Positions 2,011-64,000 of a stretch of 64,000 nt of DNA are shown one piece after another; position 1 is the first letter of the stretch, and every line of letters starts with the position of its first letter. The stretch is from an uncultured Planctomycetia bacterium (lineage in GTDB: Bacteria > Omnitrophota > Gorgyraeia > Tantalellales > Tantalellaceae): positions 4,579 to 68,578 of the forward strand of contig CAZGQR010000009.1 of the NCBI GenBank assembly GCA_964527765.1. Direction: 5' to 3'. The translations under genes and the position numbers were made by a program. Under the pieces are notes generated by a model. It was not told where the DNA came from. It made no database searches and worked only from the letters and a program-made list of their open reading frames with translations.

Positions 2011-3933
<1,923 letters not shown>

Positions 3934-4026
3934 TCTTACCTGACTGTTCTATAAGTAATGATATTGAATTTGATAGTAGTAATCATACCGGACGCGGTGC
4001 TATTGTAACATACTCCTCAAACACGG

Positions 4027-5103
4027 TCAACTGCGCCTTTTCCTGAAAATGATCTCATCGCCATGCTTGGTCACTCTTATTTTTCCTGGAAAATCCAGCG
4101 ATTTGTTCCTTTCCGCGGCTCTCAGGAAATAATCCATGTCCATCCAGTGCCGGTACGTGAGCTTCTTGATATTACCCCCGGCTCTCCTGAAAAGCTCTTT
4201 GAAAAGTTCTTTTCTCAGCGCTTTCGGCTGAAGAAGAATATCCTTGATCTTTATGCCGCTGGCGCGCGTCCCCTTAGAAAAGTTTTTTCTAACGGGGCCC
4301 GCATGCCTCTCGATGGCCTTTTTCTTCTCCGTATCAAGAAAGACAAGATCCTCCCTGAGGGTATCGGACAGGTTCACCAGGGACCGTTTAAGGCCCGGAT
4401 TATATTTTTCAAGAAGGGGCAATATCTCGTGGCGTACCCTGTTGCGCAAAAATCTAACGTCCAGGTTGGTCTTGTCTTCGACATATTTTGACCCGGTTTT
4501 TTTAAAAAAGTCCAGGACATCACGCCTCTCGACCCTTATCAGGGGGCGGATGATCCTTCGTCCGTCCTCGTACCTGACCGGGGGAATGCCGGTGATCCCG
4601 GCAGATGACGACCCGTAAATGATCCTCATCAGGACCGTCTCGGCCTGGTCGTCCATTGTATGCCCCGTGGCTATCACGTTGCATTTGTTGCGGGCGGCCG
4701 CCTCAAGCAGGAACGCGTATCTTTTTCCCCGGGCCTGTTCCTCGACCGAGATACCCTTTTTCCTCCCGGATCTCAGGTTTACTTTTTTATGGACGCATTT
4801 CAGCCCTGACTCCCCGGACAGTCTTTTCACGAATTCAGAATCGCGCCTGGACGCGGTCCCCCTGAGTCCGTGATCCATGTTCCCTACGACTATCTCCAGG
4901 TCCAGTTCCCTGCGGAACCGCAGGAGCGCTTCCAGAAGACATACGGAATCCGGGCCTCCTGATACCGCCACCAGCACCCTGTCTCCTTTATGAAGCATGT
5001 CGTACTGCTTTACGGCATCCCTTACCCTTTTTAAAAAAGCGGAACCGGATAGCCCCCGCCTGCCGGCGGCGGGTTTAGTCTTTTTTTGTTTTCTTCTTTT
5101 CAT
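4027..5103 (-). CDS. tilS: tRNA(Ile)-lysidine synthetase TilS
   Basis: PP-loop SGGPDS (VLVAVSGGPDSVCLL). ORF track extends to 5238 with an Arg/Lys-rich N-terminal extension overlapping queH. Start reassigned to internal ATG at 5103 (M46), ~20 aa before the PP-loop as in TilS. Conserved tilS-ftsH adjacency. Confidence 0.8.
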   Translation of the reverse strand: MKRRKQKKTKPAAGRRGLSGSAFLKRVRDAVKQYDMLHKGDRVLVAVSGGPDSVCLLEALLRFRRELDLEIVVGNMDHGLRGTASRRDSEFVKRLSGESGLKCVHKKVNLRSGRKKGISVEEQARGKRYAFLLEAAARNKCNVIATGHTMDDQAETVLMRIIYGSSSAGITGIPPVRYEDGRRIIRPLIRVERRDVLDFFKKTGSKYVEDKTNLDVRFLRNRVRHEILPLLEKYNPGLKRSLVNLSDTLREDLVFLDTEKKKAIERHAGPVRKNFSKGTRASGIKIKDILLQPKALRKELFKELFRRAGGNIKKLTYRHWMDMDYFLRAAERNKSLDFPGKIRVTKHGDEIIFRKRRS

Positions 5104-7675: not shown

Positions 7676-7947
7676 TTCCCCGTCCCGCCTCCGTACATGA
7701 CCTTGGCCGCCAGTATGAAAAGACACAGGATGAGCGAGACGCTGTTTGCCAGTATGATCGGAAACTGTCTTAAAAAGATCCCGTAAACCAGCCACAGGAA
7801 AATACCGGCTGTAAGGATAGCGAACATGTACAGCGAGATATCCCTCACGTGCCTGGTCTTCAGGATCTTGATTATCTGTGGTATGAAGGATATCGTCGTG
7901 CATATGCCGGCAATGATCCCTATAATACCGATATGCAGCTGCTGCAT
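7672..7947 (-). CDS. SemiSWEET / PQ-loop 3-TM sugar transporter
   Basis: 91 aa, three hydrophobic helices, PQ motif (FIPQIIKILKTRHVRDIS) in helix 1 as in bacterial SemiSWEETs. Confidence 0.7.
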   Translation of the reverse strand: MQQLHIGIIGIIAGICTTISFIPQIIKILKTRHVRDISLYMFAILTAGIFLWLVYGIFLRQFPIILANSVSLILCLFILAAKVMYGGGTGK

Positions 7948-7948
7948 A

Positions 7949-20785: not shown

Positions 20786-20864
20786 TGGTCGGGACGGCCG
20801 GATTCGAACCGGCGACCCCTAGTCCCCCAGACTAGTGCGCTAAACCAGACTGCGCTACGTCCCG
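20786..20864 (-). tRNA. tRNA-Pro (anticodon GGG)
   Basis: Minus-strand sequence CGGGACGTAGCGCAGTCTGGTTTAGCGCACTAGTCTGGGGGACTAGGGGTCGCCGGTTCGAATCCGGCCGTCCCGACCA folds as a cloverleaf: 7-bp acceptor, D-arm GCGC/GCGC, anticodon stem CTAGT/ACTAG with loop CUGGGGG (U33, G34G35G36, G37), T-arm GCCGG-TTCGAAT-CCGGC, encoded CCA. Confidence 0.85.
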
Positions 20865-49019: not shown

Positions 49020-52000
49020 TTACGCGGCGGATGCTATGAGTTCCTCGATCTTTTTATACACGCCTCTGTCGGGGACCTTGACCGCTCCCGGGATAAGCCT
49101 GATAATAACGGTGGTTCTGTAGCATTCGGCTGTCCTGTCCCAGCACATCTCCCATATGGCGTCCTCGTCAAGGTCCGCGGCATTGTCTATGGTCCTGTAG
49201 CAGCTTATGAACTTCTCTCTCCAGTATTCCACCCACCCTTCATCTCCATGTTCCCCCATCCTTGCAAGGGCCCGGAAAAGAGTGAAAAGGACCACTTCCA
49301 TCAGCGGATAATAATGCTCGCTCGTCAGGCCATTGTCCGTTATCTCCGTTATCGTGGAACTTCCCTCAAATCCCTTGAAATATTTTTCGCGGTTTTCGCT
49401 GCTCGTCACGATCATGACATTTTCCCTGCGCACGCTGCCGTCACCGTTCTGCACTACCGATTCAAGGCCGGCGGCAAGGTTTTTGCCATTGCCGTAGCGG
49501 ATCACGATATTCTTAAGAAAATAAGCGAGCTGGTCGTTACCGCCCGCGCGGTCCTTGAGCGCCCCGATCAGTCTGCCCAGTTGTTCCCTTATCTCTCCCC
49601 CGGCCAGCTCTTCGTCAACGGCAAGCACTATCTTTTCTCTCCTGTGACACGCAGTGATCAGGCCGTTCACCAGTTCCGGGAGGACCGTCTCCATCCTTCT
49701 CATGATCCTTTTCTCGGGTAATATTTCCATATCCTCAGCCGGTTTGACCCGTGAAGCATCACCGTCGGCCGCCAGTCTTGCTTTGAAGAAAGACCTTACC
49801 TTATCAAGTTCGTCCATAACGTCTTTCATGTTATCCGGCGTGCGCCTGTCTGTATCCCCCGCGGTCATGCCCATGACCAGCAGTCCCAGGCCGCTCACCG
49901 TGATATCGTGCCCGGAAACGCCGCTATCCCTTCTTTCATCCTCGATGAACAGGTGCTCTATCGTCCTTCCCAGGCCGTAGATATCGCGCTGCGGGCATGC
50001 ATCCTTGTCGCCGGTCGAGAACCGGTCATGCCCCCCGCCGACACGTTCGCCTTCCGGCCTGGCCAGGCCGAAATCGATCAGCATGACCTGTCCGCCCCTG
50101 TTGAAAAGAATATTATCCGGGGCCACGTCATTATGGGTCCAGCCGGCCTCATGCATGCGGTGCAGTATCTCCGCCACGCGGATAAAGACATCTATCTTTT
50201 CAAGGGGCCCGAGTTCCTGCCAGCGGCCCGCCGCGAGGTCTTCGCCCTCTTCCATCCCTTTAAGCTTCATCCAGAACGCACCGTTCGGGGTCGTGCCGAG
50301 GGTGATCAATCGCGGGATGCCTTCCCGGACCCCCAGCTTGTCCAGCTCCACCAGGGCCTGAGCTTCCTTGATGTTCACTTCGTTGTTATATCTTATTCCC
50401 TGTTCGTCCTCATCCATCCGCGAAACTTTATAAAAAACGTCCGGGTCCGACATGTCCTGAAAAATATCCGAGACATACCCGGACGCCATGTAGTCGTATT
50501 TTTCCTCATCGTGTTCCTCTTCCGAGACACCAAGGATCGAACGATCGACCAGCTGCTTAAGGCGCGGGTCCCGCTCCAGCTGCTTCAAAAGCTCTTCCGC
50601 CGCGTCGCTTGCCGCAGCAAATCCGAATTCAGCATCACCGGCAGCACCGGCATCCTCCGTCCCGAGAAGTTCCCGCCACTCTTCTTCTCCGAACATGGGA
50701 AGTCCCGGCTCCGTTTCCCCGAATAATTCCGTATCATTCAGGTGCTTTTCCATTATGGAAATGCTTTCCTCGATCTCCCGGAAAATATCCAGGATCAACT
50801 CCCTCCTCTTGTCGTCAATATTGGCTTCCCGCGCCAGAAATTCATCGATGGTCCTCGGAATGACCCTCAGGAACTCTATCTCCTTTGAGCTTCCGGAGGT
50901 AATTCCAAGTTCAAATTTCAGCATCTCGCGGATCCCGCCCAGCACCCAGACCATGGCTCCTTTTGTGCCGAGCCCCAGGTCCACGTACACCACCGGGGAG
51001 AGGTGCGCATCCGAGTGCTGAAGGACAAGATTCTGCCCTTTCATGTCCCTGATATAGAATCCCACGGCTTCACCGCTTTCATCCTTTTCCGCGGTAAGAA
51101 GCCACGCGCGGATTATGGTCTCGATCGCCTCCCGGTACGCTTTTTCCTTTTCCGCGGGGTCGTCGATCCTGTCGATGCTTACACCGTCCGCGAACTCGCC
51201 GATAGTGAGCCCGTAAATATCCTGCTTGTCCAGGTCCCTTGAAAGCCGGCGACTGAAGTCGTCCTCGATATAATAGCTTTTCTTGATGAATATCGCCACG
51301 CCGTTAAGCGCGCGGAGCTGCTTGAACCAGTCGATCTCGCGGCCTACCTTTTCCTGGGCGGTCATGATGTCTTCATAGTTCTCTTCATCTATCAGCCTGC
51401 ACCCGAACTTTATCCTGCGTCCGTCGTCGACTTCCGCTTCGACCCTGAACACGTCTTTGTAATCCCCGCTCTCTATATACCTTATGCCCCTGATGATGAA
51501 ATTTCTGCTTGTCGGGGAAACCTGCTGTTTGACGTCTTCCAATATTTCGGATAAGGCCCTTTTTAATGCCGCTTTCAATCTTCTTGTCCCCAGGGGCCAG
51601 ATCGTTTCCCGCAGCCCTCCCCAGAGGAGATCGTCGTCAATGCGCACTTCGGGCCTGAGGGGCAGTCTGGCGGACATCATTTTGGGCTGCGCGGCTTCCT
51701 TCCCGGTCAGAATGGCCCTTACCCTCAGGGCTTCGGCGCGGAATTCCCGCGCCGCGTCCGCGTCGCCGAGCTCGTCCTGCCTGAAAGCCAGTTTCTCCAG
51801 GTAATCCGCGGCGGCGTAGGCCGCTATCATCATGTTATAACTCGCTTTTTTGCTGGAACCCGATATCTTTCGCCATATTTCGCTCTCTTTTCTTGAAGGA
51901 TCGCGCGCCCATGACAATCCCTTCACCTTGGGATCGGCATCCGTCGCGGGAAGAGCGCCCCCGGCGATGTCATGCCTCTTGAGATACCTTCTGATGATCC

Positions 52001-55000
52001 TCGCCGCTCTTTTCTGGTGATAGCTCGCGATGTAAAAGATCATGTTATCAAGCCGCTCGTAGACGCCGTTGGGGCTTGCCGCTTTCGCGGAGAAATCTAT
52101 CTTCTTCTTTATCAGCTCCTGCGTAAGATCGATAAAATGCGCGTGGATCTCCGGGGCCCTGTCCGGCTTGAACGTTATGTAAGCACGCACTTCTTCCGCA
52201 CCCGGGTCCCTGTACTTCCCGGTCGATTTGTTGTAAAACAGCATGAAACCTGACGCGTTACGCGTGTCCCCGTTATAGTGATAATCGGACTCTGCGTTTA
52301 TGTGCCTGAAACGGACTTCGATGCCGAACTTTTCGAGCAAGATCTCCCTGAAACCCTGACGGACGGCGCGCCCCTCTTCCAGTATCTTCATGGCCCTTTC
52401 GCGGGATGGCTCGCTTTTTTCTCTCCGTCGTTCTATAAGAAAATTATACATGTATCGCACTACCCGGCCGGCAAGTGTGGGCCTGTCCCCTTCGACAAAA
52501 AGGTTCCCCATTACCGGGGCGATAAAAACATCCGGTTTCCTGTCCACGACAGGAAAAAGAGGGCTTACCTCTACACCGTCCGGTTCCAGAGCGCCGGTAG
52601 ATTCCCCCCGTTGCCGCGCGAACAGTTTTTCGAACTCCGCCAGTTTTTTCGGATCCTTCGCCAGAGCTTTCCTGATCACGTCCGCCTGGGAGAGAAGCCC
52701 CGTGCGCACGAGATACTCGACCAGTTCCTGCGCCGTGGCTTTTCCGGCGAACCCTTTCAAATGTTCGGCATCCAGCCCTCCGCCCATTGGTGGCGATTTA
52801 TCTTCAGGTGATTCGGCAATGGGCGGACGGGCTGTGATGCCGCTGCGGGCAGGCAATTCGTCCGTTATGAATATCCTTATCTGGGGATCGCGGTAATCGC
52901 AGTTCGAATCAAGTTCCTTTCCGTACAGATACGCGCTATAAGGGATCCCACAGGCCTTCAGATAGCTCGTATAGATCTCGAGGTGTTCCAGTTCACCGGA
53001 GGCGAGCCTGCGCTCCGGGAAGAGCTCGTAGTCATCCTTCTTGTCAAACCTGTATATGTATTTGAGCGGGAAATAAAAATCGGCCCGGACGGTCCTGTCC
53101 CGCGAGCGCTTCTCCGAGTCAATAAGAGTGATTATGGAATCGAAACTGTGGCGGTGGCAGGCGCCCCATGCGCCTCCCGTGATCACGAAAACAATATCGT
53201 CATTTTTAAGAACGGTTTCCACCCATTCCGCTTCAAGATCACCTTTATTTATCTGCGTTTCTCCGATCCCGTATTTTGACGCGAGCCGTTCCGGATCGGG
53301 GGCATATGCATCCGAAGGCCTGGTCACGATGCACCGGTGATCGACCGGGCCGAGCGCATCTTCAACGCCGGCGATCGTTCTGCCGGGGATCTCCGGGTGG
53401 ATCTCAAGGGCTGCTATTTTCGCGTCGGTAACGGCTGTTTCTCTGGCGGAAGAGGCCGTGGCACGTGGAGGCTTTGTGAAAACATAAGCGGTATTGACAT
53501 TTATCAGTCCCGGTATTTCCTCAAACCCGGGTTCATTTTCCACGAAATCCTTTCCGTCGAAGTGGCCCCATTTCAGGCTCCACCCACCTTTCTTTACGAG
53601 TTTTTTGCTAAGCTTACGTATAATAGGCCTGTTCTTCCGGTAGGCTTTCGAACTCGGCGGAAACTCTATAATGATCTGTCCGCCGGGCGCCATCCATTCT
53701 CCGAGCTTCTCATACCAGGCATCGGGAATATCCTTCACGTCAACATAAACGGCGACGTTGCATAATCTCAAAGTCCCGACACTGCCCGGCGCAAGATCCA
53801 GGTCGAGTATGTCCTGCTCCAGCACTTCCATCCCGTCGTCCGTCTCCAGCAGCGCCTCTTTTACCTGATTCAAATACGCGATAACAAAAGGATTCTTGTC
53901 CACGAAAACATACTTGCGGTCCTTGGAAAAATTCAAAAAGTAATAAAAGGGATTAGTGCCCGAAGCCAGGTCATAAAAGGGTTTTTTGTTCGCTTCCGCA
54001 TCCGGATTTTCGTGCCCCGCTATGATCCGGTTCAGCTGACCTATTTCCCGTGCGTATTCTATGTTTATGAGGGCCAAAAGCCGGCCTAACAGCGCTACAA
54101 ATTCCTTCGCCTCCGGATCTGCATGCATAGTGCCCGTAAAAGCGGTAAACCGCCGGAACCCGTCAAACATGTAAGGCTGATCAAGTTCTTCATATTCTTC
54201 CACTAAAAGTTCATAAGCCAGGTTAAGATCTTTCGCAGTGTTTAAAGAAAGAAGTAATTTGCCTGCTATTTTGAAAAAATCAAATCCGGTGCGTTCGATC
54301 ATCTCGACGAACTTCGGGTCCTTCTGCATGTAGATCTCTCTGGCGCGGGCGGCAAACCGCTCCGTGTTTTCCGCCGAACGGGCGGCGGGCAGTCCGGGAA
54401 CGGGCTCAAATTCGATGGAAGTCCGCGTTCCTACGATATTCCTGTGATTTTTACCGTAAATTTCCTGTCTTCCATAATACGCCACGCCGTCCAAGGCCCT
54501 GACGGCCTTTTCACCGGCCCCGTAACCGTACAGCTGGGCATTATGAGCCCCTATCGTTTTCCCCGTATCTACGCCCTCTTTCGACGCCGTATCGTATACG
54601 TCCATGACTTTCGCGCTTCCGTGGGGGGAGAGCTCCAGATAAATGAATATGGGACGTTCGAGATCCATTCTGTTCCCGTGCACAAAAGCGTTCTGTAAAA
54701 CCTCCCGGACCGCGGAACGCATGTCTTCTCTGCCAAATGCCCCGGACATACCCCACGCAAGATCGATCAACAGGCCTTTTAACTCTTCGTATTTATTCTT
54801 TACTTTGGAGAGAGCTTTTAGATCGAGACTGACGATCTTCCCGTTTTTGATCGCGTTTATTATTTCGTCTGTCGAAGAAATATCTATCTTGACGATCTCG
54901 GATGCGCCGGTCGTCTCCCTTATCGCCTGCTTCAGGGGATCCAGCGGCGGTAAAACCCTCTGCCCGTCGGCGGATACCGCGGAGAATAAGACCCCCTGCT

Positions 55001-58000
55001 GAAGGATGGGCCGCGGCTGGGGTTCCGGCAGCGGGAATAATGTCAGCTGTTCATAGGCGGGCGCCTTCTTCTCGACCGACATCCTTACCTTATCGAGCAG
55101 ATCCTTCGCCATATATTCAGATATTGCAACGAAACGGCACTTTTGCCGTTCGTCTTCGGGCAGATCCTCCGTTGAAGGATAATAGATCTCCCGGAATCCG
55201 AGTTTTTCAAAGAAATCCTTCGCCTGTTTTCCCTCTTCGGCATATTCGCTGTCCTCTGCCGGGTGCCCCGCGAATATTCCTTCCGCGCTGCCCTTGGTAT
55301 CAGGATCGTTCAGACCCCTTTCAACGGCCTTCGCGATAAGGACCTTGCCCAGGCCTCTCTCTCTATATTCTTCCGAGATCTCCATGTACTCGCCGATATA
55401 AACATCCCGCGCATAAAGTTCCTGCGCCCCTTCTTCAGGGAACATGAACGGGCCCTTGTAATAATACGCCATGCCCAGGAGTTCGCCTTTCTCCGACTGC
55501 AGCTTTGCCAGGAATCCGGGGGAATGCATCTTCCCGTCCATGGCGCCTTCCCAATTACGTCTTTCAAAATAACGTTCCTTCCCCGGGGCGAACCATGCAT
55601 CCAGGGTCTCTTTTATTTTGACCGGATCGGATACCTCCTCCACGTAATACCTGGTATCACCGGTCCGGAAAGGCCCTCCTATAAGTTCTTTCCGTTCTGC
55701 GGCGGGGTGCCGCGTCAGCCCTCCGACATCCTGCCGCGCAAGCAGTTCCTCGAACTCCGCCAGTTTTTGCGGACGCCTCTTTAATGCTTCCCTGATTATA
55801 TCCACCTGATAAAAAAGACCCGTACTCGTAAGATATTTGATCAAGCCTTCCGGCGTCGCTATCCCGGCGAATTCTCCCAACTGTTTAGCATCCAGCCCCC
55901 CGCCGATAGGCGCTGCGGCCTTTGGCTCTTTTGTTTTATCTGTTCCCGGATGTCCGGCAGGATCATGCCCGGCCCATTCCAGTTCCCAAAGCTCTGCCTG
56001 CTTTTCATCCGCTAAATCGATGCTGACGGGTTTCCATCCTTTGCCCTTGAACGGGAATTCGTAATTTTCCCACAGATTTACTTCCGGTATCGTGATCTTT
56101 TGCCTTTTATACCGCCGTCTTATCCTTTCCTTTCCGGAAGCGTAGAACGATCCGATCCCTGCCTTTTTTGCGGCACTGATTATTTCTTTTATGGCATTTT
56201 CCGCCCATGCCCTGTATACATCCCTTACATGGCTCGGCTTTAGTTTCCTATATCCCCTTGAGGGGTGCACTTCATTAAATAAAATCGCCGGCTTTCCGCC
56301 TATGAGCTTAACTTCAGCTTCTATCTGGCCGAATGAACCCTCCGGGCCTATGAACGCCTGCGCGACCGGCATATCCAACACATCCAGTTCAGGATGGCTA
56401 TCCCTATAAGAGACCTCCGGCTCAACGACAAAAACCTTAAATATATCATCATACTCGACCGTTGCCGTCACCCGGTGCCCTTTATGATCCCAGGTGATTT
56501 CCTTCTTACCGGCAAAAGACCCTATAAATTCTTTTTTCAGTTTTTCCATGCCGGCCCGGGGGAGTTCCCGGGGCTTTTCCGCGGGCTGTTCTCCGGACGG
56601 AGTTTTCAAAAAGTGACTGATAAGAAGGCTGCCTATCACAATACCCGCCAGCCCCAGAATACCCCAGATACTTAACGCGCCGATGCCCGCAAGAGCGAAT
56701 GCGGGCAGCATCCGGGTTTGATCCTCCGCGGCGCGGACCGTGAAAACGATATCGCCGAAAGGATTATCTCCCGACCGGTTGGAGTTGATAGACGGCCGCC
56801 ACAGCGATTCTTCATCGGAAAACTTCCCGTAACGGAGGCGCCCTTTAGCGTCCTTGTACCTGTAGCCCGTGACGCGGGCTTCAGCCGTAACCAGATACCT
56901 GCCGGGCCTCTTCGGCTCAAATACGCCCCCGAAAACATAATCGTGATGATGAAGACCCCCCACCGCCTTGTAATCCATGGGTATATACTCGGTCCCGACA
57001 AATTTTCCGTTTTCATCGAACGTGTTGATCTTCAGGCGGGCTTCCAGGCATTTTTCCGCGAAATTGCGATTTTTCTCAAAATCATCCCGGGTTTTTTCCG
57101 GAACGGGATAGAACTCCTCGACCTCGCCAAGGTATACCCTCAAAGTGATCTCGCTGCGCGAATTTGTTTCGCAGTCTATCCTGGCGCCGGAGACGGGGTC
57201 AAGCCCTCCCAGCCATGAAATGCGCGGATAAACGAACGCCTTGTCGAGCCTCTGCGATACGACCAGCTGCCGCAGGATCCCGGATACGTGTTCCAGCGTG
57301 ACGGTGTCCCCCTCAAAATCCATTTCCTCCCTGAGGATGGTCATTATCGTCTCAAGCGAATGAAGATCGTCCTTGGCCCTTTTATTGGCCTCGTAATAAG
57401 GCTCTTTTTGGTCCTCCGGCACATTAAGCTCACTGATCATGCCGTCAAGCACTTCTATATCTTTTGCCAGAGCATTTTTTATGCCGTTCATCTCTTTTAA
57501 AAAGCTGCGGACGTCTTCCACGGTCAGTCGCGCCATATTGCCTTCCATCTTGGAAATGCTGTATCTCGCCTCGGCAATATGACCCGCGGAGTTCTGTCCG
57601 AATTCAGTGTGGGATTCCCGGGATATGTCATCCTTGTGTTGCCTGACCAGGTGCTTTATATTGGACCGTATCAACCCTTCCACCGAAACCACGCTGTTGC
57701 GGAAAAGATGGCTTGTATCGGAAATGATCTGTTCCGGCACTGTCCTTTTGTGCGCTTCCATAAAGAGCATGACCTGTTCCGGATATGTTTTACCGTCTTT
57801 CTCGTCCACGCTTCTCGTATGCGCGTATTTTATGAAATGTTTATACTCCGAGGGATATGCCCTTTCAAGATAATTGACCGCGTCCCTGAACGGAAACTGC
57901 AGCGTGAGCATAAAAAGGAACAGGAAATCTTTTTCCTTCTTCTGATCGGCGGCCAGTATCCCGCCGATGGTCCTGCGGAAGATATGATCGAACCTGGCGG

Positions 58001-61000
58001 GGGTGAACGGGACCATGTCGTATTTCTCCTTGTTGACCGACAAAAGCTTCATGAGATGTTCCCTTACCAGTCTCATGCTCCGGGTCTCGTCCGGTACGGT
58101 TTTCGCCCACTCATTGAACTCATAAATAACAAGATTATCGCGGCACTGGGCCCACTGTTTTCCTATTTCACCGGCGATATCCTCCAGGGCCTCTTCTATG
58201 TCCGCGTAAACCTTCCTGTCGAACCTGTTCAGGCTTACCCGTTCTTTGTTCCCGCTGTCGTACAGCCTGACGGGATTGCCGATGACCTTTTCGCTGTAAT
58301 AATCCGCGGCAAGCTCTTCGACGAACTCCTCTTCCGTTCCATATCCGCCGTGCTGGTCCTGGTAGAGCCTCATAAAACGCGCGAATTTCTCCTGGCCCAG
58401 CCTGCCCCTGAGCCGCCCCAGGAGGGCTTTTACATGATCGTCCGTTATGAGCTCGTGCACTTTTTCGTGAAAATACCCGTAAGTCTGTATTTCGGACCGG
58501 GAGATATTTCTGCCCAGCGTCTCGGAAAGCGATTGCCTGTAGATCTCCATGACCTGTCTCGGCTGCTCCAGGACCCGGGGCGTTTCGCCCTTGATGATGC
58601 GGAAGATACCGAAACGGATGATCTCCCGGGCCTCTTCTTCCCTGCATAACCCCGCATCGACAAGCTTTTTCGTAAAAACCCCCCACAGGTTTCCTTTGCC
58701 TTTTTTGACCATGCGGGGAGGCCGCGAGGAACGTTCTTCGCCCTTGTCTTTCTTTCCGGAGCGCGTCATTACGTCGCATGACATTTCCTTCGGCGTATCA
58801 TCCCAGTGCCTGTAGATCCACTCGCGCAGGATCCAGATCGCTTCTTTGGCCTCTCTGACGGCTTCGGCGTTAACCCCGATCTTTAGCGGGCCCAGCAGAT
58901 TTCCGTATATATCGCTGAGGTCGGCTTCTCCGGAGCTGAACGATTTCATGTTCCTCAGATCCTTGTAACGCCGGCTGCCTTCCTGAAAATATTTCAGGAA
59001 TCTTTCCGCGAGCTCAGCCGCCGAAAGCGAGGAAATTTCTCTCACGAACGGCTCTTCCCAGCGTTCCTTGAATTCTCCCGGCCATTTGCGCGGGTAATAC
59101 GCGAGCTTGACCAGGTCCACAAAGCTTTCAAGGTCAAAGCGGCTTATCCTGTTCCGACGGACGTTCTCTGTATAGTTTTTCCACATCTGGTGCCAGTAAA
59201 TCTCAAGCCGCGATATATCAGTAAGGTTCTCTGTTTCGGATGGAATAGCCGCAGCCTTCAGAAGCTCGCGTTCCTGTTCTTCGTTCAGGCCGAAATCGAG
59301 GGAGAGGGCCCTTAAAAGCTCCGCATATTCCCATTTGTTCAGGGACTCCAGGCTCTCCGATCCCGAATCGCCGAGAGATCGCAGCGTCTTATAAAGATTC
59401 CCGTATTTGACGCTCATTTTTTCAAAGGAACCCGCCAGGGACGGTATCGAATCCACCTCGAGGGCGCGGATAAGGACCTGAAAGGCTTCGAACAGGGGAT
59501 TGGGTATCTTCCTGGAACGTTTCCGGGGGTCGGGCATTTGCATGCTCACGAAAGCGGCGTGGTAGAAAAGCGTCCACAAAAGACGCGGGGAACCCCTTCC
59601 GATATTGTTTTTGCGCGCGAACTGCAGGTACAGGTTGAAATTTTCCACGAAAAGCCGGTCCATGCATTCCGCCGGTTCCCCTTTCAGGCGGGCATCTATA
59701 TACTGGTCCCTCAGGATCTCCATGAACGAATTCAAGAGTTCCGTGAGCCTGAGGCGTTCTCTTGCCGCCTTGATATATTTTCTCGGAAGATTTTTATCCC
59801 ATTCTCCGCCTTTCTGCCATTTCTCGAGTTCTTGCCGTGCTCCCTGCAAAAGGTTGTTCATGCGGTAAAATTCCGGCTCTTTGAGGCTCCTGTCCCGGGT
59901 CATGCCCTGTATCCATCCCAGGGCGGTATCGTTCTTGCCCCTCTCGAGAAACTCCAGTATCCTGTCCGCTTTCCATATGTTAAAACTGTTGCGGTGATGT
60001 ATCCTGTATCTGAGCTCGCTTAATCTCCCGGTCAGTATACGGTCGATCTGGCTCTCAAGCGCTTCCTGCCTGACTTCCAGGAGACTGGCTATGACGCGCA
60101 ATATCTCCAGCGCGCTTCCGTACTCCTCGATCTCCAGAAGCTCCCTGACAAACCCCGACGCCTTGAAAGCGATCGCCTTTTCCCTGACCTTGGCCCTTTT
60201 GAGCGAACTCTCAAGGCCGCCTAAAAGTTCCACGATCTGTTCTTTTCTCTCGATCTCTTCGGCACCGGCGGCACGTTTCCAGCCTTTCCGGCGGCCGACC
60301 GCCTCTTTTGTCTCCTCCAGGGCCTTGATGGATCCCCTGGCCGCGGAGACCGTCCTGCGCACCCAGTCCATCTCCTCGAGGATACTGTCGGTCTCCCTGT
60401 CGCACGTGCGTATCGCCTGCCATGTCAGCTTAGAGGCGTGCTCCGTAACTTCCCTTACATAAGCCTCCCTTTCGCCGGATATCGCATGTTTCGCGTATTT
60501 GCCTTTAAGCACCTTGTACATCCCCGCGCTGGCGTCAAACCACGTTCTCGGCCGCATCCTTCTTTTTCTGGCGCGTGATGCCAGGGCAAGCTCCTCGGCA
60601 AGAAGGCGCGAAGCGGCGCAAAGCGAAGCGCACGCGGCGGACTCATTTTTAATATCTACAAGTTCAATGGCGCGCCCGATCTTTTCCCTGATCTCTTCGC
60701 GGTAATTACGCCCGCCCGTGATAGATAACGGATATGAAGGATCTTCAAGTCGGAACAATTCGCCGTGCATCTCTTCTCTCAGCTTTTCCAGGCGCCCCAG
60801 GCAAACTCGAAGTTTTTCTTCCCTTTCTTCTTCCGGGGCCCCGAAGATCCACCTTATGGACAGCCCGGCGCGCTCGGACGAAAGACGGATAAGTTCAAGG
60901 TTTATCTCGGGGATCCGGCGCAGGTAATAGAACAGGACATCTTTCTCCGCTTCTATATCCAGCAGTATCCTGGCGCGTTCCAGCTGGTCATAATCCGGAC

Positions 61001-63971
61001 CGGCGGACAGCCTTTCAAGTATGACCCTTGCCCCCCCGTACATCCCGGGCGGCCCCCTGCGATACCTTTCGGCCAGTTCATATATGAACGGTTTTTTCTC
61101 TTTGTCGACATGCAGTATGCCGAGGCTGGCCATGCCTTCCAGCTCAGACGATATGGTGCTGTATGAAAAGCTCTTTTCACCGCTCTTCTTCCTCCTGTCC
61201 TGGAATTCCTTTCTGGTAAAAGGACTGTTCCTTAAGGAGCCTTCCCTTAACAGGGTATCAAACCCTTCCAGTATGGAACCGCGCGGCCGGAGCCCTCTCC
61301 TGCCCTTGAACATCTCTCCGATCTGCGGCAAAGGAGGCGCCCGGGGAATGGGCACAGGCTCGGCCTCCGCTTCTTCCTTTCGGGACCTTCGCCTCATGAT
61401 CAATATCGCGGAAAGCAGCAGGACCAGCGGCACCAGGTTCCCTATATCGAAATCCGTGTTTTCCGTCGTGAAGGCGCAGCAGCATCCGCGTTTTTCTTTT
61501 TTCTCCTTGTCAAAAAGGTACCACTGGTAGGGCGACCAGCCCGCGGAGATCGTCACTGACTCCGAATAATCGCTGTCCTTCTGGCCGTCCGGCATTTCCG
61601 TGCGAATGCTCAGATCATAATCACCCGAATGCATGTGATCGGGCAGATCGACCGCATACGAGGATGTCCCTGCCCCGGGAACAAAAAATGTATCCGTGCC
61701 TATCCGTATCGTGTAACCGGTGACCGATCCCTGCAGGGCGCCGGTGTACGGCACCCAGTCCACGGTGAACGTCCTGCCGCCGGCGGCGATCACGTCTATG
61801 ATCTCGGGCGCGAACGGTTTGACTTCCGCCGACATGTTCCAGTGCTGTATGGTATCCGCCTGGGGATCGGTTATCGTGAATCCCGTATCGTCCTGCCAGA
61901 AAAGCGCTCCTTCCGCACCGGCATTGTACACCGAATCCATTTTTACGGAAATATTCGTCGGCTCGAGCTCGGTAAAAGAGAACGGCCCGTCCAGCCCGCT
62001 GGGAGGCTGAAGAGCCCCCATGTAATCATAATAATGGATCCCGTACTTATCCAGGCCGAGAGCGTTCCAGTTCAGCACCGTGTCCTTGTTCTGGGCCCCG
62101 ACCGTGACCACCGAACCCGGGTCCTGAATATGGATCATGTCGGCAAGATCCGCCACGAAAGACTGTACCTCCGGGAGGGTGGCGGTCGCCGCCCACACGA
62201 TCTCTATCGGTTCGTTTATGATGTCCCACTCGACGATCTCGCGCCGGAGCGAATACTGATTTACGAACTGCGCCATCAGATTTATCAAGGCGGCCTTTTT
62301 CACGGGATCGGTTATGAGTTCAGGGTATTCGCCCACGGGATTCGGCCCTTCCATGTCCACGCCGTCGGCCAGCGTGTAGTCGAACAGGGTGGGAATGAGT
62401 TTTATGCCCAGGGCGTTCGCGGCGTCCATGAGCGCGTCCATATCCTCATACACGTGGGCGGAAAAGGATATGGGGGCGCCGCCGCCGTCAAAGACGACAC
62501 CGGACCTTAAGTCACAGAAAAGAAATACCCGCAGATAGCCGCCCTTCCACCGGTTAAGTTCCTGGTAAAGCGCGCTCTTTTTCGTCGCTATGCCTTCGTA
62601 CGGCTCGCCGTTCACGCCGTCTCCTATATCATATCCGTATTTTTCCCAATAATTCGCGCCGCGGGCGAACGTCCAGCCCGGCGTCCACTCCTCGATGATC
62701 TCCTGGACCGGATCGACCTTTTCCACGCTGCCGTCGGGGTAATACGTTATAAACTCGGTAAGGTTCCAGGAGCCGTCATACGCGAAAGTCCAGATCGTCC
62801 CGTCCGTGTCATGCCTGCTGTTTATGTATTCATCGATCCCGTCCAGACAAAAGGAAGCCACCGTGCCGTCATCATACGTCCTGGTAAGGTAATTCGCGTC
62901 TATTGCCTCTTCTGATGCCATGGTAGAGGTGATCGGTGTATATTTTCCCGTACCGGCCGTGGCCGCGATCGGCGCCAAAAGCAGGAAGAAACAAAGCGTT
63001 AAAATGACGAATATCCTTGCCATCCAGCTGACCATCCCGAACACAAAGGGCAGCAGGAATGAATAAAACGTTCTGCCGTTTTCGGGAAGCAGGATTTCGG
63101 CTTTTTTTATCGCCTCATCCAGCGGCACCGGATGAACGACCCCCCTTCGTTTGATCTGTTTCCTCATTTCTTTAAGCAGCTTCAATATGTCCTCCGCTGC
63201 TTCTTTTTGCCCGACACTGCGGTTGAACTGGCCGGCATGCTCCCTGGCAAGGTCCATGCCCTCCGCTCCGGACGGATCCAGCACCAGCAGTTCGCTCAGG
63301 TTCTGCATCGCCCGCGGGAGCATGATCTTCGGATATTTGTCTTTAAGGGTGGAAATGATGACCGCCAGGATAAATCTTCCCATGACCGACCGCGCTTTAC
63401 CGTCAAACTTCCCGGGCAACCCTTGTTTTATGAATCCCTGCAAGCCGACGTAAAAATCGGCTGTTCTTTCTTCCTCCCAGGAATAGGTCAGCGACTTGGG
63501 AAACACATGGGCCGGGATCCTCCACACCGATAATTCCCTGAATATCCTGCTGTAGACATCCTGCTGGCCCTTATCGTCAAGATCGTCAAGCGCGAAATCT
63601 TTCCTGCTTGCGATGGTTTCTGCAAGCAGGGGCTGGATCTTTTTAAACGTGTCTTCGTCAAGAAACCCGCGGAATTTCATGATCTTCAGCCAGCCTTTGA
63701 CATCCGCTTCATTGTGTATGATAATTGTCCGCGGATATAAGCGGCGTTCGGTGAGGGCGCAGAACGCGTCGGCCACCGAAAAAAGATTCACTCTTATGCC
63801 AAGTTGCCGGTTAACTTTTTTGAGGGTCTCTCTTAATCTGGGTTCATGATTCACGGCTATGGTCAGGATGGCTTCCGGCGGCAGCCGAATACCGCTTTTC
63901 TTAAGGACCGCAAGCGAATCCCCGGTATGGTCATGGATCCTTTTCTTCTCGTTATCCGTCATCTGCGCCAA
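49020..63971 (-). CDS. giant multidomain membrane-anchored protein, 4983 aa: TM-flanked extracytoplasmic GH-A-like domain plus ~4100-aa cytoplasmic region with GNAT-, GHKL-ATPase-, SAM-MTase- and two kinase-like domains
   Basis: Single uninterrupted 14.9-kb reading frame. Codon usage and GC are continuous with neighbours. The domain motifs are detailed in the sub-features. No in-frame stop between 63971 and the window end, so the 5' end may lie outside the window. Codon 1 as reported appears to be TTG. An ATG (M4, ~63960-63962) has AGGA 11 nt upstream. Confidence 0.85.
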   Translation of the reverse strand: MAQMTDNEKKRIHDHTGDSLAVLKKSGIRLPPEAILTIAVNHEPRLRETLKKVNRQLGIRVNLFSVADAFCALTERRLYPRTIIIHNEADVKGWLKIMKFRGFLDEDTFKKIQPLLAETIASRKDFALDDLDDKGQQDVYSRIFRELSVWRIPAHVFPKSLTYSWEEERTADFYVGLQGFIKQGLPGKFDGKARSVMGRFILAVIISTLKDKYPKIMLPRAMQNLSELLVLDPSGAEGMDLAREHAGQFNRSVGQKEAAEDILKLLKEMRKQIKRRGVVHPVPLDEAIKKAEILLPENGRTFYSFLLPFVFGMVSWMARIFVILTLCFFLLLAPIAATAGTGKYTPITSTMASEEAIDANYLTRTYDDGTVASFCLDGIDEYINSRHDTDGTIWTFAYDGSWNLTEFITYYPDGSVEKVDPVQEIIEEWTPGWTFARGANYWEKYGYDIGDGVNGEPYEGIATKKSALYQELNRWKGGYLRVFLFCDLRSGVVFDGGGAPISFSAHVYEDMDALMDAANALGIKLIPTLFDYTLADGVDMEGPNPVGEYPELITDPVKKAALINLMAQFVNQYSLRREIVEWDIINEPIEIVWAATATLPEVQSFVADLADMIHIQDPGSVVTVGAQNKDTVLNWNALGLDKYGIHYYDYMGALQPPSGLDGPFSFTELEPTNISVKMDSVYNAGAEGALFWQDDTGFTITDPQADTIQHWNMSAEVKPFAPEIIDVIAAGGRTFTVDWVPYTGALQGSVTGYTIRIGTDTFFVPGAGTSSYAVDLPDHMHSGDYDLSIRTEMPDGQKDSDYSESVTISAGWSPYQWYLFDKEKKEKRGCCCAFTTENTDFDIGNLVPLVLLLSAILIMRRRSRKEEAEAEPVPIPRAPPLPQIGEMFKGRRGLRPRGSILEGFDTLLREGSLRNSPFTRKEFQDRRKKSGEKSFSYSTISSELEGMASLGILHVDKEKKPFIYELAERYRRGPPGMYGGARVILERLSAGPDYDQLERARILLDIEAEKDVLFYYLRRIPEINLELIRLSSERAGLSIRWIFGAPEEEREEKLRVCLGRLEKLREEMHGELFRLEDPSYPLSITGGRNYREEIREKIGRAIELVDIKNESAACASLCAASRLLAEELALASRARKRRMRPRTWFDASAGMYKVLKGKYAKHAISGEREAYVREVTEHASKLTWQAIRTCDRETDSILEEMDWVRRTVSAARGSIKALEETKEAVGRRKGWKRAAGAEEIERKEQIVELLGGLESSLKRAKVREKAIAFKASGFVRELLEIEEYGSALEILRVIASLLEVRQEALESQIDRILTGRLSELRYRIHHRNSFNIWKADRILEFLERGKNDTALGWIQGMTRDRSLKEPEFYRMNNLLQGARQELEKWQKGGEWDKNLPRKYIKAARERLRLTELLNSFMEILRDQYIDARLKGEPAECMDRLFVENFNLYLQFARKNNIGRGSPRLLWTLFYHAAFVSMQMPDPRKRSRKIPNPLFEAFQVLIRALEVDSIPSLAGSFEKMSVKYGNLYKTLRSLGDSGSESLESLNKWEYAELLRALSLDFGLNEEQERELLKAAAIPSETENLTDISRLEIYWHQMWKNYTENVRRNRISRFDLESFVDLVKLAYYPRKWPGEFKERWEEPFVREISSLSAAELAERFLKYFQEGSRRYKDLRNMKSFSSGEADLSDIYGNLLGPLKIGVNAEAVREAKEAIWILREWIYRHWDDTPKEMSCDVMTRSGKKDKGEERSSRPPRMVKKGKGNLWGVFTKKLVDAGLCREEEAREIIRFGIFRIIKGETPRVLEQPRQVMEIYRQSLSETLGRNISRSEIQTYGYFHEKVHELITDDHVKALLGRLRGRLGQEKFARFMRLYQDQHGGYGTEEEFVEELAADYYSEKVIGNPVRLYDSGNKERVSLNRFDRKVYADIEEALEDIAGEIGKQWAQCRDNLVIYEFNEWAKTVPDETRSMRLVREHLMKLLSVNKEKYDMVPFTPARFDHIFRRTIGGILAADQKKEKDFLFLFMLTLQFPFRDAVNYLERAYPSEYKHFIKYAHTRSVDEKDGKTYPEQVMLFMEAHKRTVPEQIISDTSHLFRNSVVSVEGLIRSNIKHLVRQHKDDISRESHTEFGQNSAGHIAEARYSISKMEGNMARLTVEDVRSFLKEMNGIKNALAKDIEVLDGMISELNVPEDQKEPYYEANKRAKDDLHSLETIMTILREEMDFEGDTVTLEHVSGILRQLVVSQRLDKAFVYPRISWLGGLDPVSGARIDCETNSRSEITLRVYLGEVEEFYPVPEKTRDDFEKNRNFAEKCLEARLKINTFDENGKFVGTEYIPMDYKAVGGLHHHDYVFGGVFEPKRPGRYLVTAEARVTGYRYKDAKGRLRYGKFSDEESLWRPSINSNRSGDNPFGDIVFTVRAAEDQTRMLPAFALAGIGALSIWGILGLAGIVIGSLLISHFLKTPSGEQPAEKPRELPRAGMEKLKKEFIGSFAGKKEITWDHKGHRVTATVEYDDIFKVFVVEPEVSYRDSHPELDVLDMPVAQAFIGPEGSFGQIEAEVKLIGGKPAILFNEVHPSRGYRKLKPSHVRDVYRAWAENAIKEIISAAKKAGIGSFYASGKERIRRRYKRQKITIPEVNLWENYEFPFKGKGWKPVSIDLADEKQAELWELEWAGHDPAGHPGTDKTKEPKAAAPIGGGLDAKQLGEFAGIATPEGLIKYLTSTGLFYQVDIIREALKRRPQKLAEFEELLARQDVGGLTRHPAAERKELIGGPFRTGDTRYYVEEVSDPVKIKETLDAWFAPGKERYFERRNWEGAMDGKMHSPGFLAKLQSEKGELLGMAYYYKGPFMFPEEGAQELYARDVYIGEYMEISEEYRERGLGKVLIAKAVERGLNDPDTKGSAEGIFAGHPAEDSEYAEEGKQAKDFFEKLGFREIYYPSTEDLPEDERQKCRFVAISEYMAKDLLDKVRMSVEKKAPAYEQLTLFPLPEPQPRPILQQGVLFSAVSADGQRVLPPLDPLKQAIRETTGASEIVKIDISSTDEIINAIKNGKIVSLDLKALSKVKNKYEELKGLLIDLAWGMSGAFGREDMRSAVREVLQNAFVHGNRMDLERPIFIYLELSPHGSAKVMDVYDTASKEGVDTGKTIGAHNAQLYGYGAGEKAVRALDGVAYYGRQEIYGKNHRNIVGTRTSIEFEPVPGLPAARSAENTERFAARAREIYMQKDPKFVEMIERTGFDFFKIAGKLLLSLNTAKDLNLAYELLVEEYEELDQPYMFDGFRRFTAFTGTMHADPEAKEFVALLGRLLALINIEYAREIGQLNRIIAGHENPDAEANKKPFYDLASGTNPFYYFLNFSKDRKYVFVDKNPFVIAYLNQVKEALLETDDGMEVLEQDILDLDLAPGSVGTLRLCNVAVYVDVKDIPDAWYEKLGEWMAPGGQIIIEFPPSSKAYRKNRPIIRKLSKKLVKKGGWSLKWGHFDGKDFVENEPGFEEIPGLINVNTAYVFTKPPRATASSARETAVTDAKIAALEIHPEIPGRTIAGVEDALGPVDHRCIVTRPSDAYAPDPERLASKYGIGETQINKGDLEAEWVETVLKNDDIVFVITGGAWGACHRHSFDSIITLIDSEKRSRDRTVRADFYFPLKYIYRFDKKDDYELFPERRLASGELEHLEIYTSYLKACGIPYSAYLYGKELDSNCDYRDPQIRIFITDELPARSGITARPPIAESPEDKSPPMGGGLDAEHLKGFAGKATAQELVEYLVRTGLLSQADVIRKALAKDPKKLAEFEKLFARQRGESTGALEPDGVEVSPLFPVVDRKPDVFIAPVMGNLFVEGDRPTLAGRVVRYMYNFLIERRREKSEPSRERAMKILEEGRAVRQGFREILLEKFGIEVRFRHINAESDYHYNGDTRNASGFMLFYNKSTGKYRDPGAEEVRAYITFKPDRAPEIHAHFIDLTQELIKKKIDFSAKAASPNGVYERLDNMIFYIASYHQKRAARIIRRYLKRHDIAGGALPATDADPKVKGLSWARDPSRKESEIWRKISGSSKKASYNMMIAAYAAADYLEKLAFRQDELGDADAAREFRAEALRVRAILTGKEAAQPKMMSARLPLRPEVRIDDDLLWGGLRETIWPLGTRRLKAALKRALSEILEDVKQQVSPTSRNFIIRGIRYIESGDYKDVFRVEAEVDDGRRIKFGCRLIDEENYEDIMTAQEKVGREIDWFKQLRALNGVAIFIKKSYYIEDDFSRRLSRDLDKQDIYGLTIGEFADGVSIDRIDDPAEKEKAYREAIETIIRAWLLTAEKDESGEAVGFYIRDMKGQNLVLQHSDAHLSPVVYVDLGLGTKGAMVWVLGGIREMLKFELGITSGSSKEIEFLRVIPRTIDEFLAREANIDDKRRELILDIFREIEESISIMEKHLNDTELFGETEPGLPMFGEEEWRELLGTEDAGAAGDAEFGFAAASDAAEELLKQLERDPRLKQLVDRSILGVSEEEHDEEKYDYMASGYVSDIFQDMSDPDVFYKVSRMDEDEQGIRYNNEVNIKEAQALVELDKLGVREGIPRLITLGTTPNGAFWMKLKGMEEGEDLAAGRWQELGPLEKIDVFIRVAEILHRMHEAGWTHNDVAPDNILFNRGGQVMLIDFGLARPEGERVGGGHDRFSTGDKDACPQRDIYGLGRTIEHLFIEDERRDSGVSGHDITVSGLGLLVMGMTAGDTDRRTPDNMKDVMDELDKVRSFFKARLAADGDASRVKPAEDMEILPEKRIMRRMETVLPELVNGLITACHRREKIVLAVDEELAGGEIREQLGRLIGALKDRAGGNDQLAYFLKNIVIRYGNGKNLAAGLESVVQNGDGSVRRENVMIVTSSENREKYFKGFEGSSTITEITDNGLTSEHYYPLMEVVLFTLFRALARMGEHGDEGWVEYWREKFISCYRTIDNAADLDEDAIWEMCWDRTAECYRTTVIIRLIPGAVKVPDRGVYKKIEELIASAA
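49751..50471 (-). other. giant ORF: Hanks-type (eukaryotic-like) Ser/Thr protein kinase-like domain 2 (aa ~4500-4740)
   Basis: FWMKLKG (beta3 Lys), catalytic loop WTHNDVAPDNILF (nt ~50106-50135), DFG as MLIDFGLARPEG (nt 50068-50076), subdomain IX-like DIYGLGRTIEHLF. Confidence 0.6.
50771..51371 (-). other. giant ORF: degenerate protein-kinase-like domain 1 (aa ~4200-4400)
   Basis: Catalytic-loop-like FYIRDMKGQNLVL (nt ~51030-51050, RD-K-x-x-N retained, His lost) and DFG-position VVYVDLGLG. Confidence 0.4.
52620..52795 (-). repeat. giant ORF: internal module copy B (aa ~3725-3783), PMGGGLDAEHLKGFAGKATAQELVEYLVRTGLLSQADVIRKALAKDPKKLAEFEKLFARQ
   Basis: Paralogous to copy A. Shared nucleotide strings include ggctggatgc, ttcgccgg and aaaaactggcggagttcga. 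Confidence 0.7.
53561..53951 (-). other. giant ORF: class I SAM-dependent methyltransferase-like domain (aa ~3340-3470)
   Basis: Motif I-like ILDLDLAPGSVGTL (nt ~53780-53820) and post-I/motif II-like WMAPGGQIIIEFPP (nt ~53664-53699) at typical spacing. Confidence 0.45.
54401..54821 (-). other. giant ORF: GHKL/HATPase_c-like domain resembling RsbW/SpoIIAB-type serine-kinase anti-sigma factors (aa ~3050-3190)
   Basis: N-box AVREVLQNAFVHGN (nt ~54672-54710), downstream Gly-rich boxes DTGKTIG and GYGAGEKAVRAL. Confidence 0.5.
55211..55631 (-). other. giant ORF: GNAT-like N-acetyltransferase domain (aa ~2780-2920)
   Basis: Motif A-like RERGLGKVLIAKAVERG (nt ~55325-55375), with beta-strand pattern GELLGMAYYY...VYIGEYMEISEEY upstream and DFFEKLGFREI downstream. 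Confidence 0.5.
55745..55915 (-). repeat. giant ORF: internal module copy A (aa ~2685-2742), PIGGGLDAKQLGEFAGIATPEGLIKYLTSTGLFYQVDIIREALKRRPQKLAEFEELLARQ
   Basis: ~50% aa identity, and visible DNA-level similarity, to copy B at 52620-52795. Confidence 0.7.
56610..56715 (-). other. giant ORF: third 35-aa hydrophobic segment (aa ~2419-2454), possible re-entrant/hairpin membrane anchor
   Basis: MLPAFALAGIGALSIWGILGLAGIVIGSLLISHFL. Gly-rich centre. Topological consequence uncertain. Confidence 0.4.
61393..61436 (-). other. giant ORF: predicted transmembrane segment 2 (aa ~846-859) followed by RRRSRK
   Basis: NLVPLVLLLSAILIM then RRRSRKEEAEAE (positive-inside), returning the chain to the cytoplasm. 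Confidence 0.6.
61437..62960 (-). other. giant ORF: predicted extracytoplasmic domain (aa ~338-845) with clan GH-A (GH5-like) glycoside-hydrolase signatures and a C-terminal FN3/Ig-like module
   Basis: EWDIINEPIE (NEP acid/base motif, nt ~62209-62217). ~80 aa downstream FTELEP (candidate nucleophile Glu). Aromatic-rich beta/alpha pattern. Then a beta-rich segment (TFTVDWVPYTGALQGSVTGYTIRIG...YDLSIR) and CCC just before TM2. Confidence 0.5.
62961..63068 (-). other. giant ORF: predicted transmembrane segment 1 (aa ~302-337)
   Basis: FYSFLLPFVFGMVSWMARIFVILTLCFFLLLAPIAATAG. The long hydrophobic stretch is preceded by a charged cytoplasmic-looking region. Confidence 0.6.
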
Positions 63972-63974
63972 ATT

Positions 63975-63999
63975 CCTGGCGCTATAGTGAAGCGCCAGG
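63975..63999 (-). other. perfect 9-bp stem / 7-nt loop hairpin (cctggcgct-atagtga-agcgccagg) immediately 5' of the giant-ORF reported start
   Basis: Seen directly. Could be a terminator of an upstream gene, a 5'-UTR structure, or coding if the ORF continues upstream. Confidence 0.4.
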
Positions 64000-64000
64000 T

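Follow-up and report, generated by a model that had tools for sequence, protein, structure and literature searches.

GNAT, SpoIIAB/RsbW-like GHKL and methyltransferase modules in a very long Omnitrophota protein: probably independently shuffled units rather than a dedicated cascade

The long open reading frame and its source

The window analyzed here, a 64-kb stretch of contig CAZGQR010000009.1, contains a very long open reading frame (ORF) on the minus strand, of which 4983 codons are visible (listed as 49020-63971) and which is open at the window edge. Within this ORF, three consecutive enzyme-like domains were recognized: a GNAT N-acetyltransferase domain, a predicted SpoIIAB/RsbW-like GHKL domain (module A), and a predicted class I S-adenosylmethionine (SAM)-dependent methyltransferase (module B). 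An earlier, sequence-only reading of this DNA had placed three such domains at window positions 53561-55631 and proposed that they might represent a fused regulatory cascade. As residue i of the ORF corresponds to window position 63971-3(i-1), this interval is equivalent to amino acids (aa) 2781-3470, all inside the single minus-strand ORF. The main features are listed below.

49020-64000, minus strand: very long ORF, 4983 codons visible, open at the window edge
55188-55583, minus strand: GNAT N-acetyltransferase domain (aa 2797-2928), from Pfam Acetyltransf_1 and Acetyltransf_7
54405-54941, minus strand: module A, predicted SpoIIAB/RsbW-like GHKL (Bergerat-fold) ATP-binding domain (aa 3011-3189), from profile and AlphaFold2 model
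54042-54365, minus strand: helical N-terminal subdomain of module B with six predicted helices (aa 3203-3310), from AlphaFold2 secondary structure
53457-54014, minus strand: Rossmann core of module B, predicted class I SAM-methyltransferase (aa 3320-3505), from profile and model

Upstream of the first listed codon, no stop was found before the window edge. The first 80 aa of the ORF (window 63729-63965) matched positions 69-147 of the 170 positions of HD_5, which is the C-terminal part of that profile. Furthermore, a contig from JGI sample 3300018080 (Ga0180433_10000322, 83 kb) was 99.995% identical to the window over 21 kb, and the same gene is called there as a 6184-aa protein, with an HD match. 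Because the ORF is open at the edge and the gene call has 6184 aa, the window residue numbers used throughout are approximately 1201 lower than those in the real protein. The missing N terminus was also sought by an exact-DNA search of metagenome contigs with the window edge, which returned no match. A perfect 8-bp inverted repeat (CCTGGCGC ... GCGCCAGG) was present at window 63975-63999, within coding sequence.

The source organism is an Omnitrophota bacterium. RecA encoded in the window shared 82% identity with that of Ca. Makaraimicrobium thalassicum (phylum Omnitrophota) and 77-81% identity with RecA of other Omnitrophota metagenome-assembled genomes (MAGs). Likewise, those homologues of the modules that bear names are proteins of Candidatus Omnitrophota MAGs.

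GNAT, GHKL and methyltransferase modules

Judged by its sequence, the GNAT domain is a plain member of its family and a predicted acetyl-CoA-dependent acetyltransferase. Acetyltransf_1 (PF00583) matched aa 2797-2901 with 29.6 bits, passing the gathering score of 20.7, and scored 23.3 bits when the whole protein was scanned; the Acetyltransf_7 match reached 26.3 bits. The string that had been read as GNAT motif A, RERGLGKVLIAKAVERG, matched the translation exactly at aa 2870-2886 (window 55314-55364). The acetyl-CoA pyrophosphate-binding loop, motif A R-x-x-G-x-G, is intact as R2870-E-R-G-L-G2875 (consensus R/Q-x-x-G-x-G/A), and this part of the sequence-only reading holds.

Homologues of the modules that follow were collected by an exhaustive HMMER search with aa 2960-3720 against 1.84 billion representatives, which yielded 131 proteins matching module A, module B, or the adjoining module C separately. 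Module A (aa ~3011-3189) was matched by 55 of these and module B (aa ~3203-3505) by 69. A word-index homologue search with aa 2740-3500 and with the module A alignment was empty, although the exhaustive search found homologues, and a single-sequence phmmer search against the PDB gave nothing significant.

By predicted fold and by motifs, module A is an RsbW-like GHKL domain, without formal Pfam membership. HATPase_c_2 (PF13581) scored 19-20 bits with the query alone and did not reach its gathering score of 27.4; the best score seen, 25.2 bits for one whole homologous protein (P0009), was still lower than this value. The same profile was matched independently by 19 of 31 family members, with a best E value among excised domains of 1.6e-4. 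When the module A family was aligned by hhalign with the SpoIIAB sequence of PDB 1TIL (E=1.8e-3), E46, N50, H54 and G55 of SpoIIAB, its G1 Asp and its G2 G-x-G were all in register. The AlphaFold2 model (pLDDT 94.5, pTM 0.90) pointed in the same direction: in a Foldseek search against the PDB, seven of its ten best matches were SpoIIAB (1TID, 1TH8, 1L0O, 1TIL) or UsfX (8IH8), with probabilities of 0.91-1.0, E values from 3.5e-3 and TM-scores of 0.50-0.55 normalized to the target, while GHKL domains of histidine kinases and PDK ranked lower.

The N-box EVLQNAFVHGN was found as previously quoted, at aa 3090-3100 (window 54672-54704), with E3090, N3094, H3098, G3099 and N3100 as its key residues; D3127 is the G1 Asp, and G3149 and G3151 form G2. 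In an alignment of 31 sequences, N3094, H3098 and G3099 were invariant, N3100 was present in 30, E3090 in 27, and P3107 was nearly invariant. The downstream glycine boxes that had also been described were recovered in part. G2 is conserved (G3149 in 29/31, G3151 in 23/31), as is the G1 Asp (30/31), but this Asp is followed by Ala instead of Gly in 27/31 sequences, so that G1 reads D-x-A and not D-x-G-x-G. Overall, the RsbW-like assignment of the sequence-only reading is borne out by the N-box, the SpoIIAB alignment and the fold matches, and module A probably acts either as a Ser/Thr kinase or as an ATP-dependent binder.

The N-terminal ~45 residues of module A form an additional alpha-beta-alpha unit in the model. 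For aa 3011-3055 (window 54807-54941), a borderline profile match to the archaeal SepF-like protein 3ZIG was observed (E=1.6e-3), and Pfam SepF was weakly matched by 6 of the 31 family members. This signal may reflect only a generic beta-alpha-beta resemblance.

Module B is a predicted class I SAM-dependent methyltransferase, as had been proposed. With the query alone, Methyltransf_25 was matched weakly (E=0.07). The family profile detected solved methyltransferases in the PDB (5WP5, E=1.5e-6; 4GEK, 2.3e-4; 2YQZ, 4e-4; 3MGG, 8e-4), and one family member (P0004), named by NCBI as a class I SAM-dependent methyltransferase, passed the Methyltransf_31 gathering score of 27 with 30.5 bits. In the model (pLDDT 94.7), a six-helix N-domain precedes the Rossmann core; this N-domain (~110 aa) is conserved in about half of the family. 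A structure search with the model returned 968 PDB matches at E<=1e-3 (top E value, 1.5e-7); the 50 listed were without exception SAM-dependent methyltransferases, and almost all had the class I fold. The top matches were the protein N-terminal methyltransferases NTMT1 and ScNTM1, at TM-scores of ~0.5, from which the substrate class of module B cannot be inferred.

Profile alignments with solved methyltransferases placed motif I at YDLASGTN (aa 3333-3340, aligned to vLDvGcGiG), motif II at VFVD (D3358), motif III at QD (D3387), and the L-x-PGG strand at WMAPGG, with PGG at aa 3429-3431. Across the family, G3338, D3358 and G3431 were invariant, and D3334 and D3387 were present in at least 90% of members. 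Both strings that had been taken for a motif I/II pair are present in the translation. WMAPGGQIIIEF (aa 3426-3437, window 53661-53696) is indeed part of the methyltransferase fold, whereas ILDLDLAPGSVGTL (aa 3388-3401, window 53769-53810) spans motif III (D3387) to motif IV and is not motif I.

Arrangement and interpretation of the array

The same domain kinds recur together in related proteins as shuffled beads, and neither their order nor their adjacency is conserved. Modules A and B co-occurred in none of 124 homologue-bearing proteins. The number of module A copies per protein ranged from 1 to 6, and the copies were often arranged in tandem. In one homologue (P0084), module A is followed by a homologous GNAT domain, the reverse of the order seen here; in another (P0020), module A is followed by Methyltransf_31 and then by a GNAT domain. 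Other combinations included two copies of module A followed by a CheR methyltransferase (P0017) and three copies together with a HAD domain (P0009). When ten other segments downstream of module A were scanned, one contained a methyltransferase, one contained HATPase_c together with NTP_transferase, and eight had no Pfam match; no conserved downstream partner of module A was found among them.

The combination of acetyltransferase, GHKL and methyltransferase domains had been described as not a standard architecture. However, methyltransferase, HATPase and GNAT domains have already been reported together in long proteins of Omnitrophota, and the combination was also seen here in homologue P0020. 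They are common in the giant proteins of this phylum termed "Archaeovorins" (West-Roberts et al. 2023, 10.1101/2023.11.21.568195). Furthermore, a co-occurrence "Module 1" composed of methyltransferase, HATPase, GNAT, HAD and HD domains was described from 916 long proteins (Nielsen & Lui 2026, 10.64898/2026.06.07.730766). The domain combination is therefore already known for the phylum, and the finding is ordinary as a discovery.

We interpret the array as a set of independently shuffled modules of a long, membrane-anchored Omnitrophota protein and not as a dedicated cascade, a reading to which we give a probability of roughly 70%. Window 53457-55583 (minus strand) encodes consecutive modules predicted to fold autonomously, namely GNAT, GHKL, and methyltransferase with its helical N-domain, followed by a Cys-His domain. 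The protein is membrane anchored and has at least 6184 aa; the modules lie in its C-terminal half and are joined by Pro-rich linkers. Each belongs to a family whose members are duplicated, shuffled and recombined, independently of the other families, among the long multi-enzyme proteins typical of the phylum, as "beads on a string". Each module would then use its own cofactor (acetyl-CoA, ATP or SAM) on near-membrane substrates, independently of its neighbours, and no wired acetylation-phosphorylation-methylation cascade would be apparent.

Several points weigh against this interpretation. Many of the homologues are contig fragments, so the missing co-occurrence of modules A and B is partly a statement about sampling. 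In three proteins, a methyltransferase comes immediately after module A, each time from a different family (module B in this ORF, CheR in P0017 and Methyltransf_31/11 in P0067). This could hint at functional coupling, although three cases are too few for statistics. At 6184 aa, the protein is shorter than the length cut-offs of both published catalogues of Omnitrophota giant proteins (>=10 kAA, Nielsen & Lui, 10.64898/2026.06.07.730766; >=30 kAA, West-Roberts et al., 10.1101/2023.11.21.568195). The motif I loop of module B is A-S-G-x-N instead of G-x-G-x-G. Finally, ATP turnover by module A is not assured, because the domain lies below the Pfam gathering score and its G1 reads D-x-A.

These non-canonical glycine signatures, together with the position of both modules under Pfam gathering thresholds, would also be expected if the GHKL-like and methyltransferase-like modules were catalytically dead pseudo-enzyme scaffolds that act as structural or binding units only. 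We consider this improbable. The most conserved columns of the two families are the cofactor contacts, i.e., the N-box Glu and Asn, the G1 Asp, the G2 Gly, the motif I Asp and Gly, and the Asp residues of motifs II and III, a pattern that selection for the binding of nucleotide or SAM would be expected to produce.

A fused partner-switching cascade, as put forward in the sequence-only reading, would have the RsbW-like kinase, the GNAT domain and the methyltransferase of one polypeptide target one another or a single shared regulator, by analogy with Rv1364c of Mycobacterium tuberculosis. In line with such a cascade are the nearest structural matches of module A, which are the anti-sigma kinases SpoIIAB and UsfX, the IMG name "anti-sigma regulatory factor (Ser/Thr protein kinase)" of homologue P0009, and the three module A-methyltransferase adjacencies. 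The only GHKL-type match of the module A profile in the PDB was likewise to Rv1364c, at the N-box, but with an E value of 0.66 this match is insignificant. The sequence-only reading had suggested a search for STAS partners elsewhere in the genome; neither the visible 4983 aa (Pfam E<=1) nor the other window genes contained a STAS, PP2C/SpoIIE or sigma-factor domain. Neither adjacency nor order is conserved, and the presence of up to six copies of module A in a single protein is unlike a switch. A dedicated cascade is thus highly improbable, and we favour independently shuffled modules.

Flanking features, membrane sidedness and known systems

The array is embedded among further domains and repeated elements of the same protein, which are listed here together with the last hydrophobic segment before it.

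56604-56711, minus strand: third hydrophobic segment (aa 2421-2456; aa 2420-2459, 40 residues, in the hydropathy scan), the last before the enzyme array
55731-55910, minus strand: 60-aa linker element, copy 1 (aa 2688-2747), from masked self-BLAST
52830-53444, minus strand: module C, conserved domain directly after module B (aa 3510-3714)
52611-52790, minus strand: 60-aa linker element, copy 2 (aa 3728-3787), from masked self-BLAST
51891-52259, minus strand: HopA1-effector-family-like domain (aa 3905-4027), Pfam HopA1 31 bits against a gathering score of 22.7
49932-50366, minus strand: protein-kinase-like domain with HND...DFG (aa 4536-4680), from Pfam Pkinase, Kdo and APH
49023-49712, minus strand: C-terminal domain (aa 4754-4983)

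The two copies of the 60-aa element are 60% identical (E=4e-18) and flank the block of GNAT domain and modules A, B and C on both sides. Their shared pattern is GGGLDA..L..FAG.AT...L..YL..TGL..Q.D.IRKAL...P.KLAEFE.L.ARQ. Neither the homologue set nor the related loci contained the element, which may serve in docking or processing or may mark the edge of a cassette. Module C, the Cys-His domain of the array, has seven homologues that share an invariant TGG-x-W-x-x-CH...F..I...FP signature, and one protein (P0087) carries four partial repeats of it. It had no Pfam match and no credible PDB match, as the profile gave only spurious interferon-receptor matches. The idea that module C is an isochorismatase-like Cys hydrolase was a guess that found no support in the PDB profile search.

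HopA1 is a type III effector family of plant pathogens. For the kinase-like domain, NCBIfam added generic kinase models and a weak match to the XopAU effector kinase. The C-terminal domain was also present at the C termini of two homologues (P0104 and P0105), together with module A. Two further features read by eye were dropped: a second kinase-like region at aa ~4150-4400, which had no Pfam match, and a GH5-like "NEP" motif in the ectodomain, which had no Pfam support.

All credible genes across the 64 kb are on the minus strand, and GC skew was negative in every 2-kb bin. The remaining window genes are housekeeping genes: CinA, LigT, RecA, AlaRS, the his/trp/thr/leu operons, LepA, Der, UvrB, ValRS and FtsH. 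A single tRNA-Pro(GGG) was detected at 20786-20864. Ca. Makaraimicrobium thalassicum keeps the order large ORF(s), CinA, LigT, RecA, AlaRS, and there the C-terminal domain ends two consecutive large ORFs upstream of cinA-ligT-recA. In the relatives, this domain was located at 3758-4351 and 7709-8419 of locus L001 and at 21-692 of locus L003. The syntenic locus shares only this domain (aa 4754-4983) with the long protein and contains neither module A nor module B, which suggests that the interior of the gene turns over fast. A related-locus search with aa 2740-3500 against genome contigs and metagenome contigs returned no relatives.

Membrane segments were sought in a Kyte-Doolittle (KD) hydropathy scan with a 19-residue window average and a cut-off of KD 1.3. 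Only three segments exceeded this value, at aa 302-344, 838-863 and 2420-2459. The HD fragment precedes the first transmembrane segment (TM1), an fn3/RHS-like ectodomain lies between the first and second, and an RRRSRK stretch follows the second (TM2). HD is a cytoplasmic type of domain, fn3 and RHS are extracytoplasmic types, and an RRRSRK-like stretch is a positive-inside signature. Upstream of the array, a long region had no Pfam match. Were the third segment a single span, this parity would put the array outside, together with the fn3/RHS ectodomain. The sequence-only reading had called the array cytoplasmic, a location that would be predicted only if the 40 residues of the third segment (aa 2420-2459) form a hairpin.

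This topology bears on a further explanation, in which the string from the GNAT to the kinase-like domain would be exported or surface exposed after the third segment, delivered into a host or prey cell, and used to modify host proteins, with the two copies of the 60-aa element delimiting cassettes or processing sites as in multi-effector toxins. Single-span parity, the HopA1 match above the Pfam gathering score, the weak XopAU-type match, and protein N-terminal methyltransferases as the top fold matches of module B all fit such an effector array. Omnitrophota also include episymbiotic or predatory members, their giant proteins have been discussed as extracellular effectors, and it is a recognized puzzle that metabolic domains are predicted to lie on the outer face (10.1101/2023.11.21.568195; 10.64898/2026.06.07.730766). 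However, the visible 4983 aa showed neither a signal peptide or other secretion signal nor an autoprocessing protease domain, the third segment could be a hairpin, and Lys/Arg are not depleted on its C-terminal flank. The neighbouring genes are housekeeping rather than secretion genes, and the 60-aa repeat was not found elsewhere. We regard an effector array as unlikely. In its bolder form, which is quite unlikely, an episymbiotic or predatory member of the phylum would export the C-terminal string of ~2500 residues as a cassette of several effectors, with enzymes active only in the target cytoplasm and the duplicated 60-aa element marking cassette or processing boundaries. If this were true, the cassette would represent a novel type of toxin with multiple effectors, beyond the known MARTX, Rhs and polymorphic-toxin systems.

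One very long Omnitrophota ORF combines predicted acetyl-, phospho- and methyl-transfer modules that look intact by sequence. The families of module A (SpoIIAB-like) and module B (DLASGxN methyltransferase) are useful annotations and establish no new principle. At 50% identity, module A comprises at least 55 representative clusters and module B at least 69. Most of these fall below Pfam thresholds, so Pfam-based surveys of giant proteins undercount both families. The side of the membrane and the substrates of the cofactor-dependent domains are the key question for the whole class of Omnitrophota giant proteins, and this comparatively short protein, with three transmembrane segments and high-confidence domain models, offers a tractable test case.

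Compared with the anti-sigma kinases SpoIIAB, RsbW and UsfX (PDB 1TID, 1TH8, 1L0O, 8IH8), module A shares the compact Bergerat fold of ~140 aa. Its N-box E-x-x-x-N-A-x-x-H-G follows the pattern of SpoIIAB (EAVTNAIIHG), and the C-terminal G-T strand is in register. Unlike these proteins, module A resides within a giant protein, often occurs in tandem, has an N-terminal extension, and has D-x-A at G1. Rv1364c (PDB 3KE6) also contains an RsbW-type GHKL domain inside a multidomain polypeptide. It is, however, an RsbU-RsbW-RsbV fusion with a PP2C phosphatase and a STAS substrate, neither of which was found in the visible ORF, and its likeness to module A is limited to the N-box.

The solved folds nearest to module B are NTMT1/ScNTM1, the EEF1AKMT4-like 2PXX, Bud23, PMT1/2 and CmoA. 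With class I methyltransferases in general, module B shares the predicted Rossmann fold, the motif I Asp/Gly, the motif II acidic residue, the motif III Asp and the L-x-PGG strand; it differs in motif I (D-L-A-S-G-x-N) and in the family-specific six-helix N-domain of 110 aa.

MARTX-type multi-effector toxins array unrelated enzyme effector domains on one huge polypeptide. Their polypeptides carry repeat regions at both termini as well as a cysteine protease domain that mediates autoprocessing; no such feature was detected in the ORF described here.

The giant proteins of Omnitrophota are the closest parallel in overall design. Phylum, a membrane anchor, many unrelated enzyme domains and fast sequence turnover are common to them and to this ORF. 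The visible part of the ORF differs in being without glycosyl-transferase, NUDIX or peptidase content, and its HopA1-like and protein-kinase-like domains are additional. The domain set of methyltransferase, histidine-kinase-like ATPase, GNAT and N-terminal HD is shared, and so is the puzzle of membrane sidedness, which Nielsen & Lui (10.64898/2026.06.07.730766) discuss as unresolved for their long proteins.

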